A model generated the notes under the pieces. That model did no database searches. It saw nothing but the letters and a program-made list of their open reading frames with translations, and had not been told where the DNA came from. DNA of 27,795 nt, from the IMG/VR virus record IMGVR_UViG_2703718828_000002, positions 1 to 27,795 of that record. One strand, written 5' to 3'. Below are positions 136-15,056 of this stretch, piece after piece (positions within the stretch are counted from its first letter, which is position 1; every line of letters starts with the position of its first letter). The position numbers and the translations under genes were made by a program. This DNA is from a virus. Taxonomy: Duplodnaviria > Heunggongvirae > Uroviricota > Caudoviricetes.

Positions 136-161
136 ATGGCGTGCAATTGCACGCCATTTTT
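136..161 (+). terminator. Rho-independent terminator between convergent genes
   Basis: Perfect 22-nt palindrome ATGGCGTGCAATTGCACGCCAT (136-157) followed by T-run 157-161; lies between the stop of the partial ORF (120) and the stop of the minus-strand MTase (160-162). Confidence 0.5.
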
Positions 162-1191
162 AATTTGAAAGGTGCTTGAGAATACTTTGCCCAATGATCT
201 CGCCTAACCTTACCGGCACTGCATTTCCTATCATTCTTGCTGTTGATGCAATGTCCAAACTAGATTCTTTATCGAAAAATAAATAATCTTTCGGAAAACT
301 TTGCAGTATCGCAGCTTCTCTTAAGGAGATTGCCCTGTTTTGTTCTGGATGACCAAAGCGTCCATTACCAAAACCATAGCATTGTGTGGTTATTGTTGGA
401 CTTGGTTCATTCCATGACATCCTGCCATAAACACTTTTATAAAATTTTCCAGACTCTTTTAAGTGACAAGGTGCTCTCAAGTGTATCGGCCAATCATGCC
501 AATCGCCTCCGGGCTTTGAAGCTTTAATACGCTCCATGTTCAAAGGGCTAAGAGTAGAACATTTATGAAGTGGATCGCGCTTGTCACATTCTCCAGCATT
601 TAATGATGGAAGGCCAAATATTGCATCCTTAACAGTTACGTAATTTTTTTTGTTATGAGTCGGATCAATTATAGAGATAGGACCTAATTTGGATGCTAAT
701 AATACTAAACGTTTACGAGTTTGCGGCATTCCATAATCTGGGCAAAAAACGATCTTATAATAAACATTATATCCATGGCCTTCAAGGTTGTTTATGAAAT
801 CTTTAAATATGTCTTGTGTCATCAAGCCTGGTACATTCTCCATCGTGACGATAGAGGGTTGCGTTTCATCAATTAACCGCGAAAAAGAATATAATAATGC
901 CCATTTGTCATCTTTTTTCTTGTTTTTAGTTCTTCCATATGTTGAAAACGGCTGACAAGGAGCGCATCCAGCTAAAATCGTTACATCTGAATCTTTAAAA
1001 TGACTGAGGATCTGTTCACCCTTCAAAACGGTTATGTCTTGATTGATAAAAACTGCATTATTATTAAATTCAAACGCAAAACGGCAGGTTTCTTCAATAT
1101 CATAACCTGCTACAACATCAATGCCTGATTGCTTTAACCCATGGGTTAGCCCCCCGGCTCCGCAAAATAAATCTACTGCTTTGATTTTCAA
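160..1191 (-). CDS. DNA cytosine-5 methyltransferase (Dcm-like m5C MTase), copy 1
   Basis: 343-aa translation carries m5C-MTase motifs: DLFCGAGG (motif I), GCAPCQPFS (catalytic PCQ, motif IV), ENV (motif VI), QTRKR (motif VIII), GNAVPV (motif X). Start codon is TTG (rc of 1189-1191). AT-rich relative to the integrase next to it. Confidence 0.9.
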   Translation of the reverse strand: MKIKAVDLFCGAGGLTHGLKQSGIDVVAGYDIEETCRFAFEFNNNAVFINQDITVLKGEQILSHFKDSDVTILAGCAPCQPFSTYGRTKNKKKDDKWALLYSFSRLIDETQPSIVTMENVPGLMTQDIFKDFINNLEGHGYNVYYKIVFCPDYGMPQTRKRLVLLASKLGPISIIDPTHNKKNYVTVKDAIFGLPSLNAGECDKRDPLHKCSTLSPLNMERIKASKPGGDWHDWPIHLRAPCHLKESGKFYKSVYGRMSWNEPSPTITTQCYGFGNGRFGHPEQNRAISLREAAILQSFPKDYLFFDKESSLDIASTARMIGNAVPVRLGEIIGQSILKHLSN

Positions 1192-2641: not shown

Positions 2642-2686
2642 TGGTGGAGCTGGCGGGAGTTGAACCCGCGTCCGAAATTCCTACAT
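2642..2686 (-). other. ssrA: Attachment-site core: terminal 45 nt of the tmRNA (ssrA) gene, not an intact gene
   Basis: Plus strand TGGTGGAGCTGGCGGGAGTTGAACCCGCGTCCGAAATTCCTACAT is the reverse complement of the recalled enterobacterial tmRNA 3-prime end (...AUGUAGGAAUUUCGGACGCGGGUUCAACUCCCGCCAGCUCCACCA). The match stops at 2686 and the flanking sequence is unrelated AT-rich DNA. Confidence 0.8.
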
Positions 2687-6004: not shown

Positions 6005-6065
6005 AATCCTGTTGACGTATCAAATATTGGATCGTAGTATCTTGGTGTATCAAATATTGAATCAA
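6005..6065 (+). promoter_or_regulatory. Immunity switch region: candidate rightward promoter with duplicated operator-like 13-mers
   Basis: TTGACG (6012-6017), 17-nt spacer, TAGTAT (6035-6040); the 13-mer GTATCAAATATTG occurs twice (6017-6029 and 6047-6059) overlapping the promoter; lies between divergent cI and apl. Confidence 0.4.
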
Positions 6066-7117: not shown

Positions 7118-7422
7118 GCCCCGGTGAACGCCTGAATGGACTTAACCATATTGCGGAGTTAAGGGCGAAAGTATTTGGCCTGAATATTGAGTCAGAGCTT
7201 GAGCGGTTTATTAAAGATATGCGTGATCCACGGGATATCAATAACGAACAAAATAAACGGGCACTGGCTGCTATATTCTTTATGGCAAAAATTCCAGCTG
7301 AACGTCATAGCATCAGCATTAATGAGCTGACCACTGACGAAAAGCGGGAGTTGATTAAAGCAATGAATCATTTTCGTGCAGTGGTGAGCTTATTTCCCAG
7401 ACGGCTAACCATGCCGAATTAA
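7081..7422 (+). CDS. Hypothetical early protein
   Basis: 113-aa ORF with GGGGGAA RBS upstream of ATG 7081; overlaps the previous gene end; no motif recognised. Confidence 0.5.
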   Translation: MAIEGAAATVPLSPGERLNGLNHIAELRAKVFGLNIESELERFIKDMRDPRDINNEQNKRALAAIFFMAKIPAERHSISINELTTDEKRELIKAMNHFRAVVSLFPRRLTMPN

Positions 7423-7489
7423 CCAACTAATGAAATTAATGGCGTAAACCCGCCGGGTATCCCTTTATCTAAATTCAGGAGAATTGATT

Positions 7490-7723
7490 ATGCGTAATAT
7501 TGAAACCCTCACGACTAAAACCGGACCGGATGATGCAGGGCTTAATATTTTACTGACAGAGGCTCGTCTGGAAGAACGCCGGGCAAGGGCTGAAGCAATG
7601 GCAGCTCGCCTTGATAGCCTGGCGTGTCATATCACATCCCGCCAGCTAAACCACGTCGAAGCAGCAGAACTACTGCGTGTAACTGCTGAAGCAATCCAGA
7701 ACGAAGCGCAGGAGATCCACTAA
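7490..7723 (+). CDS. Hypothetical early protein
   Basis: ATG at 7490 with AGGAG 8 nt upstream; the track start at 7484 is TTG; its stop overlaps the next start (TAATG). Confidence 0.5.
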   Translation: MRNIETLTTKTGPDDAGLNILLTEARLEERRARAEAMAARLDSLACHITSRQLNHVEAAELLRVTAEAIQNEAQEIH

Positions 7724-7950
7724 TGGCTGATGCAATGGATCTTGTACAGCAGCGCGTTGAAGAAGAACGCCAGCGCCATATCCGTGCTGCCCGTGCCAAA
7801 ACGCCGGGCGTGTCCCGCGTGCTTTGCATTGAGTGTGAAGCGCCAATTCCGCCAGCACGCCGCCGCGCCATTCCAGGTGTGCAGCTTTGCATTACCTGTC
7901 AGGAAATCGCAGAACTGAAAGGCAAACATTACAACGGAGGTGCTGTATGA
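7723..7950 (+). CDS. DksA/TraR-type C4 zinc-finger protein
   Basis: 75 aa with CIECE...17 residues...CITCQ (Cys-x2-Cys...Cys-x2-Cys) at the C-terminus. Confidence 0.7.
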   Translation: MADAMDLVQQRVEEERQRHIRAARAKTPGVSRVLCIECEAPIPPARRRAIPGVQLCITCQEIAELKGKHYNGGAV

Positions 7951-8804
7951 GCACCATCCTGAAATGGGCGGGAAATAAAACCGCCATTATGTCCGAACTG
8001 AAAAAACACCTTCCTGCTGGCCCGCGACTGGTTGAACCTTTCGCGGGTTCCTGTGCTGTGATGATGGAGACGGATTACCCCAGCTATCTGGTTGCGGATA
8101 TTAATCCTGATTTAATCAACCTCTATAAAAAGGTTGCCGCTGATTGTGAATCGTTTATATCTCGCGCCAGAGTTTTATTTGAGATCGCAAACAGGGAGGT
8201 GGCTTATTACAACATAAGGCAGGAGTTTAATTACTCCACTGAAATTACTGATTTCATGAAAGCGGTATATTTCCTGTATCTCAATCGTCACGGTTACCGT
8301 GGTTTATGTCGCTATAACAAGAGCGGGCATTTCAACATTCCCTACGGTAATTATAAAAATCCGTATTTCCCTGAAAAAGAAATTCGCGCATTTGCAGAAA
8401 AAGCCCAGCGGGCAACGTTTATCTGCGCCAGCTTTGATGAAACGCTGGCGATGTTGAAGGCGGGGGATGTGGTGTATTGCGATCCGCCGTATGACGGCAC
8501 GTTTTCCGGTTATCACACTGACGGCTTCACTGAAGATGACCAGTATCACCTGGCATCCGTTCTTGAACATCGGTCATCAGAAGGACATCCGGTCATTGTT
8601 TCTAACAGTGACACATCCCTGATCCGTTCGCTGTATCGCAATTTTACTCACCACTACATCAAGGCAAAACGCAACATCGGTGTGGCAGCTGGCGAGGGTA
8701 AATCAGCAACAGAAATCATTGCTGTTTCCGGGCCGCGCTGCTGGGTGGGATTTGATTATTCGCGTGGCATGGACAGTTCTGCCGTGTACGGAGTACGTGC
8801 ATGA
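7947..8804 (+). CDS. dam: DNA adenine methyltransferase (Dam-like, N6-adenine)
   Basis: N-terminal LKWAGNK AdoMet-binding motif and catalytic DPPY (VYCDPPYDG). ATG 7947 with GGAGG 6 nt upstream, overlapping the previous stop (ATGA); the track start at 7887 has no RBS. Confidence 0.9.
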
Positions 8805-11215
8805 GTCATGCCGATATGAACAACTGCTGCGGCTTTAACGAGGCTACCGCAGCATTCTCATGGAACAGCCCGAAAAAGGCCATTAACCCTTATCTGGACC
8901 CGGCGGAAGTTGCGCCGGTTTCTGCGCTTTCAAACCTGATCACTCTGTACGCTGCCGATAACGAGCAGGAACAACTGCGCCGTGAGGCACTGAGTGATCA
9001 GGTCTGGGAGCGTTATTTCTTTAATGAATCCCGTGATCCTGTCCAGCGCGAAATGGAGCAGGATAAGCTAATTAGCCGGGCAAAGCTGGCGCATGAGCAG
9101 CAGCGTTTTAATCCAGACATGGTCATTCTGGCGGATGTCAACGCCCAGCCTTCCCATATCAGCAAGCCGCTGATGCAACGTATTAAATACTTCAGCAACC
9201 TGGGCAGGCCAAAGGCTTATTCCCGCTATTTGCGTGAGACGATTAAGCCATGCTTGGAACGACTGGAGCATGTACGCGACAGCCAGCTATCTGCATCTTT
9301 TCGTTTTATGGCAAGCCATGAAGGGCTGGACGGTCTGCTGATCCTGCCTGAAATGAGTCAGGATCAGGTGAAACGCCTGTCCACCCTTGTCGCTGCGCAT
9401 ATGAGCATGTGTCTTGATGCCGCTTGTGGTGATTTGTACGCCTCCGATGATGTTAAGCCGGAAGAAATCCGCAAGACATGGGAAAAGGTGGCAGCAGAAA
9501 CCCTGCGACTGGATGTCATACCGCCTGCGTTTGAGCAACTCCGCCGGAAAAGAAACCGCCGCAAACCTGTGCCCTATGAACTCATTCCGGGTTCGCTGGC
9601 GCGTATGCTGTGCGCCGACTGGTGGTATCGGAAATTATGGAAGATGCGTTGCGAATGGCGGGAAGAGCAGTTGCGTGCTGTCTGTCTGGTCAGCAAAAAA
9701 GCATCTCCCTATGTCAGCTATGAAGCCGTGATGCATAAACGTGAGCAGCGCCGTAAGTCGCTGGAGTTTTTCCGTTCTCATGAACTGGTGAACGAAGACG
9801 GCGACACGCTGGACATGGAGGATGTGGTAAACGCCAGCAGCAGCAACCCTGCGCATCGCCGCAATGAGATGATGGCCTGTGTTAAAGGCCTGGAGCTTAT
9901 CGCGGAAATGCGCGGTGACTGCGCCGTTTTCTACACCATCACCTGTCCGTCACGTTTCCATTCCACGCTAAATAACGGCAGGCCCAACCCGACCTGGACA
10001 AATGCGACGGTAAGACAAAGCAGTGATTATCTGGTTGGCATGTTTGCTGCATTTCGTAAGGCGATGCACAAAGCCGGATTGCGCTGGTATGGCGTGCGGG
10101 TGGCTGAGCCGCATCATGACGGTACAGTTCACTGGCACCTGTTGTGTTTTATGCGCAAAAAAGATCGCCGCGCCATTACTGCTTTGTTGCGTAAGTTTGC
10201 CATTCGTGAAGACCGCGAGGAGCTGGGGAATAACACGGGACCACGCTTTAAGTCTGAGTTGATTAACCCGCGCAAAGGAACGCCGACAAGCTACATCGCG
10301 AAATATATCAGTAAGAACATTGACGGGCGTGGTCTGGCTGGCGAGATCAGCAAGGAAACGGGTAAATCCCTGCGTGATAACGCTGAATACGTGAATGCCT
10401 GGGCGTCTCTGCATCGTGTTCAGCAATTCCGCTTCTTTGGCATTCCGGGGCGTCAGGCTTACCGTGAACTGCGATTGCTGGCTGGTCAGGCGGCAAGGCA
10501 ACAGGGTGACAAAAAAGCAGGTGCGCCGGTACTGGATAACCCGCGCCTTGATGCCATCCTGGCTGCTGCTGATGCTGGTTGTTTTGCCACCTACATCATG
10601 AAGCAGGGCGGCGTACTGGTTCCCCGCAAATATCACCTCATCAGAACCGCTTATGAAATCAACGAAGAGCCAACCGCCTATGGCGATCACGGTATTCGTA
10701 TTTATGGCATCTGGTCACCCATTGCAGAGGGCAAGATCTGCACTCATGCAGTGAAGTGGAAAATGGTTCGTAAGGCCGTTGACGTTCAGGAGGCGGCAGC
10801 CGACCAGGGCGCTTGCGCCCCTTGGACTCGTGGCAATAACTGTCCCCTTGCTGAAAATTTGTACCAACAAGGGAAAGACAAATCAGCTGATGGGGATACC
10901 AGAACGGATATTACCCGTATGGATGACAAGGAGTTGCACGATTACCTGCACAGTATGAACAAAAAAGAACGCCGGGAACTGGCTGCAAGATTACGCCTGG
11001 TGAAACCGAAACGGCGTAGAGACTACAAACAGCGAATTACAGACCATCAACGACAGCAGCTCGTCTATGAACTGAAGTCCAGAGGATTTGATGGCAGCGA
11101 GAAAGAGGTCGATTTACTCCTTCGCGGCGGCAGCATTCCGTCAGGAGCAGGCCTGCGTGTCTTCTATCGGAACCAGCGTTTGCAGGAAGATGATAAGTGG
11201 CGGAACCTGTATTAA
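8801..11215 (+). CDS. A: Replication initiation protein A (rolling-circle nickase, P2 gpA family)
   Basis: 804 aa with HUH-type motif [10 protein letters not shown] and paired tyrosines YIAKYISK; ATGA overlap with the dam stop; size and position match P2/186 gene A. Confidence 0.9.
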
Positions 11216-11842: not shown

Positions 11843-11865
11843 GGCGGCGTTTGCCGCACTTTTAT
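11843..11865 (+). terminator. Candidate terminator after the DinI-like gene
   Basis: GGCGGCG-TTT-GCCGC hairpin followed by ACTTTTAT; marks the boundary between GC-rich phage DNA and the AT-rich cargo block. Confidence 0.35.
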
Positions 11866-11998
11866 GGATGTTAGAACTAGTATTTTAGATCTTTATTTTA
11901 TTTAACATTTTGATTGTTATGCATTTTATTTGTTTTTGTTACTTTTGTCTGTAAAAATTTTGTAGGGTAAAATCATCATCGAAGTCGAGTTAAAATGA

Positions 11999-12034: not shown

Positions 12035-13075
12035 TTGATTAAAGTTGTTGATCTTTTTTGCGGAGCAGGTGGCTTAACTCATGGTTTGCAACGAGCAGGG
12101 TTGAATGTGGTTGCAGGCTATGATATTGATGCTACATGTCGGTATGCTTATGAAAAAAATAACAATGCTTTATTTGTGCAAAAAAGCGTCACTGAACTTG
12201 ATGAAGGGGAAATAAGTAAGCATTTTAAGGATGCATCAATTAAAGTTTTAGCTGGATGCGCTCCATGCCAGCCATTTTCTAGTTATACAAATACTGATAA
12301 ATCAGTAAAAAAAATAAAAGACCATCGATGGTCTTTATTGTATAGCTTTGCTAAGCAAATTCAATTATGTGCTCCAGATATAGTCACAATGGAGAATGTT
12401 CCAAGAGTTATTAACCACAAAGTTTTTAAAGATTTTGTGAAGACTTTAAAGTCTGAAGGGTATTTCGTTTGGTATGATACTGTATTTTGTCCTGATTATG
12501 GAATGGCCCAAAGCCGATCTAGATTAGTGTTATTAGCGTCCAAGTTTGGCGAGATAAAACTAATCCCGCCAACACATGATAAAAATAACTATAACACTGT
12601 ACGTAGCGTTATTGGTGGATTGCCTCCTATTGATGCTGGATCGAGTGATGAGAAAGACAGACTTCATTATGCTGCATCTTTATCACCATTAAATATGGAG
12701 CGAATAAAACATTCTAAGCCAGGTGGAACATGGAAAGATTGGCCTGAGTACTTACGGGCGTCATGCCACACCAAAGAATCAGGATCTTCTTACACTGCAG
12801 TTTATGGAAGAATGAGCTGGGATAAACTTGGCTCTACAATTACAACACAATGTATAGGTTTTGGTAATGGTCGATTTGGTCATCCAGAACAAAATAGAGC
12901 TATTAGCCTAAGAGAGGCAGCTTTGCTTCAATCTTTTCCTCTAACTTATGAATTTTGGCCAGCTGAAGTAAAAGTTGAACTCAGGAATGTTGCACGACTG
13001 ATTGGTAATGCTGTGCCGGTGAGGCTCGGTGAAGTTGTTGGGCAAAGTATTATTGAACACCTTAAAAGAAAATAA
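12035..13075 (+). CDS. DNA cytosine-5 methyltransferase (Dcm-like m5C MTase), copy 2, paralogous to copy 1
   Basis: 346 aa with DLFCGAGG, GCAPCQPFS, ENV, QSRSR and GNAVPV motifs; collinear by eye with the 160..1191 protein along its whole length; TTG start with strong SD; AT-rich. Confidence 0.9.
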   Translation: MIKVVDLFCGAGGLTHGLQRAGLNVVAGYDIDATCRYAYEKNNNALFVQKSVTELDEGEISKHFKDASIKVLAGCAPCQPFSSYTNTDKSVKKIKDHRWSLLYSFAKQIQLCAPDIVTMENVPRVINHKVFKDFVKTLKSEGYFVWYDTVFCPDYGMAQSRSRLVLLASKFGEIKLIPPTHDKNNYNTVRSVIGGLPPIDAGSSDEKDRLHYAASLSPLNMERIKHSKPGGTWKDWPEYLRASCHTKESGSSYTAVYGRMSWDKLGSTITTQCIGFGNGRFGHPEQNRAISLREAALLQSFPLTYEFWPAEVKVELRNVARLIGNAVPVRLGEVVGQSIIEHLKRK

Positions 13076-13099
13076 AAAGGGCGAATCGCCCTTTTTTTT
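13074..13099. terminator. Bidirectional terminator shared by the convergent MTase and GHKL genes
   Basis: A-run, GGGCG-AAT-CGCCC hairpin, T8 run; overlaps both stop codons (13073-13075 and 13098-13100). Confidence 0.5.
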
Positions 13100-15056
13100 A
13101 GATACCATCAACAATTTTCATTATTCGTGCAGCATCATCTTTTTTGCTCTGATACTCAGAGTATGCTTGTTTGGATTGTATTATAAGATCGCTATATGTT
13201 AATACCTTTGCATTTATAGATTGTAGCTGTGAGCGAATATAATTATCTCCACTTCCGTCATAACCTTTGCCGACAAGAAAAACTACATCTATCGGTGGTA
13301 TTTTTCCGGCAGGGCAACTATTTGGGTTGTTTCTAAACCACTGCTCTGTGGCAACAACATATTTCCTTCCTTGACCTACTAATGCCAAAATATCAGGATA
13401 TACATTTGGTCTTTTCATTTCAATGATGACGTGTTTACCTGAAACGGTTTTGAAGGCTATATCAATTCTTGCACCACTTTCAGCGTCAGGGTTAACCTCT
13501 TTCAATTCCTTAGTCAGGGTTTGTTCCATAACTGTAGAACCAGTAACCCTCTCCCATGATGGGTCTAACAGCCATAAGTGGTCATAAAGATATTTTTGTA
13601 CAGCCTTCTCTAACTCATTGTCATCGGTGATTTTTTGAAATTTCTCAATAACTTTCAATCGCTGTGATGTAATCTCATAAAAAAGGCTTGCCTCAATATC
13701 ATTTACAGAAGCAAAAACCTCCCTAAAATGTTCTGAGTTTAAATCGCTAATTTTATCTAAAGCCTCAAGGTTATCTTTTATTCTTAATCTTTCAAAAGCA
13801 AGAACTGTATTTTTTAATACGGTTTTTTTTGCAATTTTCTGGTTTTCTTCATCTCCAGAAAATCTAAATGTGTTAATTTTGCCTAGTAATTTTTCGGCGC
13901 TGTTTCTTTCATGTTTTGACATGGAATCAAGCCAATCACTTACAGCAGGTGAAGTTTTTTTAACCTCGCTAAGACCTTTTGCTCTTCGCCATTCATCCCA
14001 TTCTTTATCTATTTTTTGTAATGTCCGTTCTAAGAAACCCTTAATCACAGGATAGCGTGGATCATTCTGCTGTAATTTCTGTCGGGATGAGGTTGCCATG
14101 TCAGGTTTTTCATTTTCATCTAAAAAATCTGCGACAAGTTCCCCTACTAAATAATTTGTAAAAACCTTTGCGCTTCCGAATTCAAGCAATATATCTTCTT
14201 CAAATACCCGCCCATTTGATATTACGGTTATCGTGTTGTTAGATATTTCAGGGTCTTTTTTAAGTTGAGATGGTTTCTCAACACTTCCTACATAACCAGT
14301 AATGAAATAATCTACGCCTTCAAAAGATAATTTGTTATCTAGAAGGCTTTTTTTAGAAAGATTTTTGCAAGATTTTACTCTTGCGGGATCTGAACTACCA
14401 AACTCCCATAAAAATTCAAGATCTGAAAGGAAGTCTCTATCTTCAGTAGTTATCTCAGTGTCATTGATTTTAACTATAAAATCATGACCAGGACCAATTA
14501 TGCTAAACCGTCTGGCAAGTCTTTTTCTTAGATAGGTCTGAGTTCTATCAATGGATTTTTTTAAATCCATAAGAACTATTGTCGTCCCTATACTAAAGTC
14601 TTTCGGAACATTAATAATATTTGCAACATATTGTTTACTGCTTTTTATACAGCGTTGCAATTCATCAACGTCAACTTCAAATCCCTGAGGCGTTTGGCCA
14701 ATTTTGTGAGAAAATACTTGGATTTTGTTAGCTAATGAAAACATTGCTAATTTACCAATGCCTTTTCTACCCATGACTTGTCGTTGTAATCCATCACTTT
14801 TATACCTTCCACTTTCTCTTCTGGCATATCCAACTTTTAGGAATTTATTAATGATGTCATCTTTTGACATTCCATGTCCATCATCTTTAATTATTACCTT
14901 TTCATTTTCAACATCTAGAGTGATGTCTACATTTTTAGCATCCGCATCCCAAGCATTTGAGATTATTTCAGTTAGAACAGCTGGTGTGTTAGAGTAAAGA
15001 CTCATACCTAAATGATTCAATACATTCAGGTCTATTTTAATTTCGAAATCGGACAT
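13098..15056 (-). CDS. GHKL-superfamily ATPase (MORC/MutL/Hsp90-like Bergerat fold) with C-terminal PD-(D/E)xK-like motif; candidate effector partner of MTase copy 2
   Basis: 652 aa. N-terminus carries N-box EIISNAWDADA, G1 box DDGHGM and G2 box GRKGIGKLAMFS; C-terminus carries RIDIAF...12 residues...IIEMKRP (D...ExK). ATG at rc 15054-15056 with AAGGA RBS; AT-rich. Confidence 0.8.
   Translation of the reverse strand: MSDFEIKIDLNVLNHLGMSLYSNTPAVLTEIISNAWDADAKNVDITLDVENEKVIIKDDGHGMSKDDIINKFLKVGYARRESGRYKSDGLQRQVMGRKGIGKLAMFSLANKIQVFSHKIGQTPQGFEVDVDELQRCIKSSKQYVANIINVPKDFSIGTTIVLMDLKKSIDRTQTYLRKRLARRFSIIGPGHDFIVKINDTEITTEDRDFLSDLEFLWEFGSSDPARVKSCKNLSKKSLLDNKLSFEGVDYFITGYVGSVEKPSQLKKDPEISNNTITVISNGRVFEEDILLEFGSAKVFTNYLVGELVADFLDENEKPDMATSSRQKLQQNDPRYPVIKGFLERTLQKIDKEWDEWRRAKGLSEVKKTSPAVSDWLDSMSKHERNSAEKLLGKINTFRFSGDEENQKIAKKTVLKNTVLAFERLRIKDNLEALDKISDLNSEHFREVFASVNDIEASLFYEITSQRLKVIEKFQKITDDNELEKAVQKYLYDHLWLLDPSWERVTGSTVMEQTLTKELKEVNPDAESGARIDIAFKTVSGKHVIIEMKRPNVYPDILALVGQGRKYVVATEQWFRNNPNSCPAGKIPPIDVVFLVGKGYDGSGDNYIRSQLQSINAKVLTYSDLIIQSKQAYSEYQSKKDDAARIMKIVDGI

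Follow-up and report, generated by a model that had tools for sequence, protein, structure and literature searches.

The genes that lead up to the replication initiator gene A in this prophage very probably belong to a Fels-2/186-related early operon of the P2 family, in which overlapping stop and start codons are the default packing and the Dam enzyme is an orphan methylase that would protect phage DNA at GATC sites. The window, i.e. the whole stretch of 27,795 nucleotides that was analysed, carries a module of zinc-finger gene, dam and A that is already known, ordinary and part of the annotation of reference phage genomes; that 186-related prophages can carry a Dam gene has been on record since the 1990 work on retron Ec67. 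Three points of a preliminary description of this DNA, made from the sequence alone, are corrected here: such overlaps are a general trait of the operon and not specific to Dam, the prophage owns only two of the three methyltransferases in the window, and one of its two enzymes comes from a rare cargo, a restriction-modification system of which it is half. A survey of related loci also provided a modest lead, namely that DNA-modifying enzymes often occupy the gene slot before A.

The prophage is Fels-2/186-related, belongs to the P2 family (Peduoviridae) and is integrated at ssrA in Escherichia coli. Among named phages its closest relative is Escherichia phage Cartapus (NC_070909, genus Elveevirus; 97% nucleotide identity), whose gp40 to gp43 are the same four genes (DUF2732, zinc finger, Dam, A) in the same order, annotated with overlaps of 1, 4 and 4 nt. 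Gene order and overlaps are annotated identically in Klebsiella phage KP12 and in the prophage of E. coli PEC1011, and SopEPhi has the same order with an overlap of 4 nt between the zinc-finger gene and Dam and of 10 nt between Dam and A. Compared with Cartapus-type relatives only the cargo differs: here gapS1 adjoins int, and a C5 methyltransferase and a restriction enzyme adjoin Q. Phage P2 (orf80-orf81-orf82-orf83-A, with overlaps of 1, 1, 4 and 11 nt) also has a DUF2732 gene and a DksA-like zinc-finger gene before A, and the nick motif of its origin lies inside A, as here, but the slot before A is filled by a DUF5405 gene (orf83) and not by a methyltransferase. The module is present in 1232 of 5426 complete E. 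coli genomes (about 23%) and in 60 phage records.

All features of the early operon lie on the plus strand. A pR-like early promoter candidate (TTGACG-17-TAGTAT, 6012..6040), called by consensus scan only, is located upstream of apl, and its position matches that of phage 186 pR. From the repressor gene to position 11945 the same scan of the plus strand returned no other promoter-like site; dam sits in the CI-repressed early operon without a promoter-like site of its own. The first of the four genes is a DUF2732 gene homologous to P2 orf80 (7490..7723; PF10809 at 3e-29), whose start codon, the ATG at 7490, follows an AGGAG and whose relatives are annotated with the same length of 234 nt and the same 1-nt overlap. 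It is followed by a C4 zinc-finger gene (7723..7950), the homologue of P2 orf82 and of the DksA-like gene that comes after DUF2732 in phage 186. Its assignment to the TraR/DksA family rests on PF01258 (3e-11; 43.5 bits, cut-off 24.9), TIGR02419 (65.8 bits, cut-off 59.7) and phrog_54 (1e-30), together with the CxxC...CxxC cysteines C35, C38, C56 and C59 (VLCIECE...QLCITCQ). Next come an orphan Dam-family N6-adenine DNA methyltransferase of the retron-Ec67/Fels-2 type (7947..8804; PF02086, TIGR00571) and gpA, a rolling-circle replication initiator of the HUH endonuclease type (8801..11215; PF05840 at 1.9e-127). For these last three genes, profile matches agree with the identities proposed at the outset.

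The four genes are packed end to end through TAATG, ATGA and ATGA. As the preliminary description had reported, the TGA stop of the 75-residue zinc-finger ORF (7723-7950) overlaps the ATG start of the 285-residue Dam ORF (7947-8804) in the ATGA at 7947-7950, and the TGA of dam is shared in the same way with the ATG of the 804-residue A ORF (8801-11215) at 8801-8804. Each downstream gene has a Shine-Dalgarno sequence within the ORF before it (GGAGG 7 nt 5' of the dam ATG, GGAG 7 nt 5' of the A ATG), and both start codons are backed by these sequences and by identical coordinates annotated in relatives. Both gene pairs therefore have the geometry of translational coupling, in which a stop and a start overlap and the Shine-Dalgarno sequence of the second ORF lies inside the first, and the sequences at both junctions are kept in 81 of 81 close relatives. 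A third junction, which the preliminary description had not listed, is the TAATG at 7723, where the DUF2732 stop and the zinc-finger start have one base in common.

Overlaps of this kind are commonplace in the prophage. The window contains five ATGA junctions (at 7947, 8801, 22845, 24883 and 26732), and in the PEC1011 prophage, which is of the same type and has an identical restriction-modification cargo, 17 of 35 same-strand junctions overlap, 5 of the 17 by 4 nt (our count from the RefSeq annotation made with PGAP). The overlaps at 7947 and 8801 are no more than the local background of this prophage type.

We propose that such overlaps are the P2 family's default mode of packing and expressing the early operon. 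Ribosomes that finish an upstream ORF would probably re-initiate at the next start, and re-initiation into A would occur whichever gene fills the preceding slot. For the prophage this is inferred from the overlap geometry and from the record of phage 186, which notes that translation of A appears to need 'translation to end of orf84'. In 186, orf84 and A are joined directly 5' of A by an ATGA stop/start overlap of the same kind as that between dam and A, but the gene before A there is PAPS-reductase-like and not Dam. The earlier proposal that the overlaps imply translational coupling into A thus has a precedent, and coupling in this prophage is a plausible extension of it.

A rather less probable reading is that the overlaps reflect genome compaction only, each gene using its own Shine-Dalgarno sequence for independent translation without meaningful coupling. 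Independent initiation is possible, since every gene has such a sequence, including the GGAGG and GGAG that lie 7 nt 5' of the dam and A start codons, and about half of the junctions in the prophage overlap in any case. RNA structure at the dam/A junction is not significant (z = -0.3), and the terminator tM1 that phage 186 has early in A (-21.8 kcal/mol, z = -3.3) is without a convincing counterpart in the prophage: the candidate, a hairpin at about 8896-8918 (-13.8 kcal/mol, z = -0.7), is no better than shuffled sequence. Both observations fit compaction. Against it stand the 186 record, with its requirement that orf84 be translated to the end, and a predicted hairpin at the junction of the zinc-finger gene and dam (7937..7963, plus strand), in which the dam Shine-Dalgarno sequence (GGAGGUGCU) pairs with dam codons 2-5, with the dam AUG and the stop codon of the zinc-finger gene both in the loop. 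This structure would sequester the dam ribosome-binding site and start codon, and a ribosome terminating on the zinc-finger ORF would open it. The fold of 7925-7975 has a free energy of -16.2 kcal/mol (z = -2.9), and 2 of 200 shuffles were equally good. Close relatives retain the hairpin, and in SopEPhi one disruptive change weakens it; changes among the relatives, which are too similar for a covariation signal, include wobble-compatible ones only and no compensatory ones. By this folding model the hairpin is a possible element of coupled zinc-finger/dam translation, and it hints that dam depends on translation of the zinc-finger gene more specifically than plain packing would require. Between the DUF5347 and DUF2732 genes, at the place of the 186 terminator tR1, no significant structure was found (z = 0.1).

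Within the proposed default expression mode, the Dam enzyme is transcribed only together with the early lytic genes. Its family membership is clear from PF02086 (1.2e-76; 258 bits, cut-off 22) and TIGR00571 (320.9 bits, cut-off 114.85), and its best PADLOC match is 'orphan methyltransferase'. The enzyme shares 47% identity with E. coli Dam (EcoDam; PDB 2G1P) and scores 286.2 bits against NF008152, the NCBIfam equivalog of host Dam, below the cut-off of 441; on this sequence comparison it represents a phage lineage and not the host orthologue. It contains the motifs DPPY (VVYCDPPY) and EPFAGS; its catalytic DPPY and its AdoMet-binding motif of the FxGxG type align with those of EcoDam, and it has in common with EcoDam, T4 Dam and P1 Dmt the D12 fold family, DPPY and conserved GATC-contact residues. 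GATC recognition by EcoDam involves K9, Y119, N120, L122, R124, P134 and Y138 (PMC4417163). Six of these seven residues (K9, Y119, L122, R124, P134 and Y138) are kept in the phage enzyme and N120 is replaced by Arg. GATC is thus the predicted target, and it is given here as a prediction in view of the N120 replacement and of the score under the host-Dam equivalog cut-off.

That the specificity of the phage enzyme is instead relaxed or different from that of host Dam, so that phage DNA would receive a protective methylation pattern of a new kind, seems improbable. The idea draws on the same shortfall (286 against 441 bits), on the Arg in place of N120 and on a C-terminal tail of 22 residues that EcoDam lacks; it is opposed by the conservation of all but one of the seven DNA-contact residues of EcoDam that were compared, R124, L122 and P134 among those kept, and by the company that the protein keeps. 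Its 90% cluster has 4038 members, one of which is labelled 'retron EC67 DNA adenine methylase', and the retron Ec67 name is also given to the Dam of SopEPhi (orf8). The prophage that constitutes the Ec67 element is related to 186 and has a Dam methylase gene (PMC7826664, which cites Hsu et al., 1990 and Dodd and Egan, 1996); the title of Hsu et al. (1990) itself assigns Dam methylase function to the element. There, as here, dam is an early-region gene of a prophage related to 186; the likeness between the two Dam proteins is indirect, by name.

A GATC methylase of this kind has a likely, inferred job in a repressed lytic operon, in contrast to EcoDam, which is expressed constitutively. It would fully methylate the GATC sites of rapidly made rolling-circle DNA, which would protect progeny DNA from restriction enzymes that cut at GATC and would keep it from being handled as hemi- or unmethylated.

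The overlaps had also been taken to tie adenine methylation specifically to replication initiation, and this part of the preliminary description did not hold when other P2-family loci were compared. A first scan of viral contigs with gpA reached only relatives at least 97% identical, so the gpA proteins of 186, P2 and SW3 were then used as queries. In the resulting survey of 287 partly redundant loci (the best 80 per query, with A starts assigned by a custom script), the start of A overlaps the upstream ORF in 234 (82%), by 1-14 nt and mostly by 4-11. Among these best 80 loci per query, the genes that overlap A encode Dam, Dcm, a DpdA-like transglycosylase, a PAPS-reductase-like protein, DUF5405, DUF3850 or the zinc-finger protein. 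Judged from these sequences, the gene before A is interchangeable across the P2 family. Dam is found there in several Peduoviridae genera; no dam gene is present in the annotated early-operon segments of P2 and 186, and in Kp4845-1, a relative that does carry Dam, a gap of 37 nt separates dam from A.

The origin region points the same way. gpA scores 425 bits against PF05840 and has HWH at 444-446 and YIAKY at 498-502, whose paired tyrosines we take to be catalytic by analogy with P2 work. An ori-like nick-site motif (GCGCCCCTTGGACTCGTGGCAATAACTGTC; 10813..10846, plus strand), recognized because it resembles the nick site annotated in P2 and the ori of 186, lies inside the gene. Profile, HUH motif, paired tyrosines and internal ori-like motif together identify gpA as a P2-family rolling-circle initiator; it is 98% identical to the gpA of Cartapus and about 31% identical to that of P2. 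GATC is absent from the ori-like motif at 10813-10846, from about 75 nt upstream and from 700 nt downstream, the nearest sites being at 10735 and 11585. The window as a whole contains 98 GATC sites against 108-123 expected, with no enrichment, avoidance or clustering near ori, near pR or elsewhere; every 200-nt stretch has fewer than four sites. A specific link between methylation and replication is therefore unsupported, given a motif without GATC and an ordinary GATC density.

We accordingly regard as very improbable the suggestion that the overlaps fix the proportion of Dam to gpA for the sake of a functional tie between adenine methylation and initiation, e.g. in origin use or timing: the ATGA overlap in 81 of 81 close relatives, the recurrence of Dam before A in several genera and the example of Dam, SeqA and oriC in E. 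coli, where methylation can gate initiation (PMC10073500), speak for it, but the slot occupant changes while the A overlap persists, the P2 and 186 segments do without dam, Kp4845-1 separates the two genes, the ori-like motif lacks GATC, the window shows no GATC cluster and the expected GATC density, and the host already supplies Dam. Control of gpA or of the origin by Dam is unlikely.

The same survey tentatively suggests, as a possibility that we would not favour at present, that the position 5' of A is a distinct, translationally coupled cargo slot which P2-family phages have repeatedly filled with DNA-modification enzymes. Candidate modification occupants are two Dam lineages (m6A), Dcm (m5C), the DpdA/TGT-like transglycosylase, possibly leading to a 7-deazaguanine modification, and the PAPS-reductase-like protein. 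If such a slot exists, protective modification would be made simultaneously and in step with the replication initiator, and the slot would be to anti-restriction what the two known hotspots of P2-like phages are to defence.

Profile searches confirmed that the window encodes three DNA methyltransferases, dam and two PF00145 C5 enzymes. One C5 enzyme (12035..13075, plus strand; PF00145 at 4.7e-57, TIGR00675) is the modification half of a prophage Type II restriction-modification system. The gene is convergent with, and 22 nt from, that of a BbrUII/HgiDII-family restriction endonuclease with a GHKL ATPase domain (13098..15056, minus strand; NF050001 at 752 bits, cut-off 550; PADLOC REase_II at 9e-91), and this pairing identifies the system as Type II. 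The cargo is rare, being found in 2 of 5426 complete E. coli genomes. Counts of GTCGAC, possibly the target motif of the system, in the prophage part (1 site against 1.6 expected under a Markov model) were uninformative as a clue to its specificity. The other C5 enzyme (160..1191, minus strand; PF00145 at 1.1e-61) is 62% identical to the first and, by its sequence context, belongs to a P4-like satellite and not to the prophage. The two elements meet at an att junction formed by the last 45 nt of ssrA (tmRNA; 2642..2686, minus strand), satellite to the left and P2-family prophage to the right; when the entire window was scanned for Rfam families and tRNAs there was no match at the gathering score, the ssrA fragment being too short to call. 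Positions 20-2686 are 100% identical to stretches of E. coli chromosomes in which the order is capsid assembly, polarity suppression, ogr/Delta-like, a short hypothetical ORF, DUF262, HEPN-like nuclease, Dcm, integrase and ssrA, and the P4-type integrase at ssrA together with the sid/psu/delta-like genes mark the element in these chromosomes as a P4-like satellite.

The composite methylation pattern that had been foreseen for lysogen and virion DNA thus has to be amended. Three methyltransferase genes are indeed present and the enzyme at 12035-13075 does reside in the prophage, as half of a restriction-modification system, but that at 160-1191 lies outside it and Dam would add no new motif, since its predicted GATC mark is the one that host Dam already makes in a dam+ lysogen. 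The distinctive mark of the lysogen would come from the rare restriction-modification system and not from Dam. Downstream of the early operon, an intrinsic-terminator-like hairpin after a DinI/Tum-like gene (11843..11865, plus strand; -21.7 kcal/mol, z = -1.9) forms the left edge of the cargo hotspot. In a 186-related prophage, retron Ec67 has been assigned to the interval that separates cos from a terminator (PMC7826664, citing Dodd and Egan, 1996); the hotspot that houses the retron there houses the restriction-modification system here.

The plus strand of the prophage carries, immediately after the DUF2732 gene (7490-7723), a zinc-finger ORF (7723-7950, 75 aa), dam (7947-8804, 285 aa) and the replication initiator gene A (8801-11215, 804 aa). 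Profile searches confirmed the proposed identities of the last three: the first product is a TraR/DksA C4 zinc finger (PF01258, TIGR02419), the second a D12/Dam methyltransferase (PF02086, 1.2e-76; TIGR00571, 321 bits) and the third a P2-type gpA (PF05840, 1.9e-127) with an HUH motif, HWH, at residues 444-446 and YIAKY at 498-502. The two ATGA overlaps named in the preliminary description can be read directly from the sequence, the TGA stop of the zinc-finger gene overlapping the dam start at 7947-7950 and that of dam overlapping the A start at 8801-8804. A further overlap occurs upstream, where the final base of the DUF2732 gene is the first of the zinc-finger ATG (TAATG). Shine-Dalgarno-like sequences are located 7 nt 5' of the ATG of both dam (GGAGG) and A (GGAG).

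This arrangement was known before and is very widespread. Of 5426 complete E. coli genomes, 1232 carry the zinc finger-dam-A stretch with 80% or more of the query covered. Over positions 7400-9000 the identity is 99.5% with a group of Klebsiella prophage records and 97% with Escherichia phage Cartapus (Peduoviridae, Elveevirus), whose annotation gives the four genes identical overlaps of 1, 4 and 4 nt. The annotated overlaps of KP12 and of the E. coli PEC1011 prophage are likewise identical, whereas SopEPhi shares the gene order with annotated overlaps of 4 nt (zinc finger/Dam) and 10 nt (Dam/A). The Dam protein exactly matches KXP43512.1 (E. coli) and falls in a 90%-identity cluster of 4038 members, one of them called 'retron EC67 DNA adenine methylase', the enzyme to which the SopEPhi record also compares orf8. 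A 34-kb 186-related prophage with retron Ec67 encodes a Dam methylase, according to PMC7826664 (citing Hsu et al., 1990; Dodd and Egan, 1996).

The overlaps around dam are not above chance when set against the other junctions of the window, which holds five ATGA junctions, and against those of the near-identical PEC1011 prophage, where 17 of 35 same-strand neighbour junctions overlap, 5 of them by 4 nt (our count, PGAP annotation). The ORF ending nearest the A start was then surveyed at loci around gpA of four clades (the window's, 186, P2 and SW3). With redundant loci (the best 80 per query) and script-assigned A starts, A overlaps the upstream ORF in 234 of 287 loci (82%): 82/82 in the window's clade, 79/80 in the P2 clade, 32/43 in the SW3 clade and 41/81 in the 186 clade, where another 28 lie 1-2 nt apart; the singleton P88 locus has a 6-nt gap (0/1). 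The gene in this slot may be the window's type of Dam, a second D12 Dam lineage, a C5 methyltransferase, the PAPS-reductase-like orf84 of 186, DUF5405 (P2 orf83), DUF3850/ASCH, the zinc-finger gene itself or a DpdA-like protein matching phrog_887 'queuine tRNA-ribosyltransferase' (8e-95). Since the upstream gene varies while the overlap persists, the overlap reflects the placement of A after any gene and not a link to Dam.

That the slot before A often holds DNA-modifying enzymes is the one mildly new lead. The DpdA/TGT-like protein (276 aa, without a Pfam match) is encoded at 2674-3504 of L111, a 186-clade survey locus, and at other loci of that clade, with an ATGA overlap with A. No deazaguanine biosynthesis genes were found among the ORFs upstream of it at these loci; the protein may modify DNA guanine using host precursors. 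In Yersinia phage vB_YenM_42.18 (NC_070913; survey locus L086, 2965-3804), an intact, unannotated Dam ORF of 279 aa, 53% identical to the window's Dam, ends 8 nt within a plausible A start. The RefSeq record annotates two short hypothetical ORFs within it, and its A start appears to be placed too far upstream. In Klebsiella phage Kp4845-1 a Dam gene also stands in front of A, but 37 nt separate the two.

Translational coupling across these overlaps, as originally proposed, is plausible, but it is generic and not specific to Dam. The precedent is phage 186, whose orf84/A junction is also an ATGA and whose record states that 'translation to end of orf84 appears necessary for translation of A protein'; the record also annotates a terminator early in A, tM1, that would act if A were untranslated. 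A hairpin predicted at the zinc-finger/dam junction may be a further element of coupling: in it, dam codons 2-5 pair with the Shine-Dalgarno sequence of dam, and the loop holds both the start and the stop codon (-16.2 kcal/mol, z = -2.9, 2/200 shuffles equally good). It is kept in close relatives and weaker in SopEPhi; no compensatory changes occur among the relatives compared, and it therefore stays a hint. Neither the dam/A junction nor the region equivalent to tM1 folds better than shuffled sequence.

The suggestion that adenine methylation is thereby tied to replication initiation found no support. An ori-like motif at ~10813-10846 (…GGACTCGTGGCAATAACTGTC…), recognised from its resemblance to the nick site annotated in P2 and to the 186 ori, has no GATC within it; the closest lie at 10735 and 11585. 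GATC density in the window is ordinary: base composition predicts 108 sites and a Markov model 123, and 98 are present. Nowhere do 4 or more sites fall within 200 nt, and the early-operon segments annotated in P2 and 186 contain no dam gene.

The enzyme shares 47% identity with E. coli Dam (2G1P) and has both the DPPY and the AdoMet motif. Among the E. coli residues involved in intercalation or base-pair recognition at GATC (PMC4417163), K9, Y119, L122, R124, P134 and Y138 are retained and N120 is replaced by Arg. Its score of 286 bits lies below the 441-bit cut-off of the host-Dam equivalog, and its top PADLOC match is 'orphan methyltransferase'. No plus-strand promoter-like sites were found between a pR-like candidate (6012-6040) and 11945, so Dam should be made only in lytic growth. 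A GATC at 6030-6033 lies in the spacer of that candidate, directly 5' of the -10 hexamer. By analogy with the roles of Dam, SeqA and MutH (PMC10073500) and with other phage orphan methylases, this Dam would probably keep rolling-circle products fully GATC-methylated and shielded from GATC-cutting enzymes.

The window does encode three methyltransferases, as first counted, but not all belong to the prophage, for the C5 gene at 160-1191 lies in a P4-like satellite. The satellite end comprises the tail of a HEPN-like nuclease gene, this methyltransferase and a P4-type integrase (1264-2457). Positions 20-2686 are 100% identical to E. coli chromosomes with the annotated order capsid-assembly, polarity-suppression, ogr/delta-like, short hypothetical ORF, DUF262, HEPN-like nuclease, Dcm, integrase and ssrA. 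The P2-family prophage begins with gapS1, int and cI, followed by the early genes apl, cII, fil, DUF5347, DUF2732, zinc finger, dam and A, and then by a small ORF, a DinI/Tum-like gene and a terminator; Q, P and late genes occupy the rightmost part of the window. The GapS1-family anti-phage gene (2819-4339; NF047931, 428 bits) separates the att junction from int. In PEC1011 and KP12 other genes fill this position, and in Cartapus a RES-domain protein.

Between the DinI/Tum terminator and Q lies a convergent Type II restriction-modification pair (12035-15056), consisting of the second C5 methyltransferase (12035-13075) and a 652-aa BbrUII/HgiDII-family restriction enzyme with a GHKL ATPase domain (13098-15056; 752 bits, equivalog cut-off 550). 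Just 2 of the 5426 complete E. coli genomes have this cargo, and its position is that of retron Ec67 in its own prophage, where the retron substitutes for DNA between cos and a terminator (PMC7826664). In the prophage part (2687-27795), five GC-rich 6-bp palindromes have no sites, namely GGCGCC (Markov expected 13.5), TCCGGA (9.7), CCGCGG (8.4), AGCGCT (7.9) and GCCGGC (6.6), which could reflect restriction-site avoidance or general E. coli bias. The lysogen probably carries extra m5C marks; the phage Dam, with predicted GATC specificity, would not be expected to add a new motif in a dam+ cell. The two C5 methyltransferases are 62% identical over their full length and, if they have the same specificity, the satellite would be immune to the prophage restriction enzyme. 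Satellite (1-2686) and prophage (2687 onward) stand in tandem with only the last 45 nt of ssrA (2642-2686) between them, so that one attachment site serves both the satellite and a potential helper phage.
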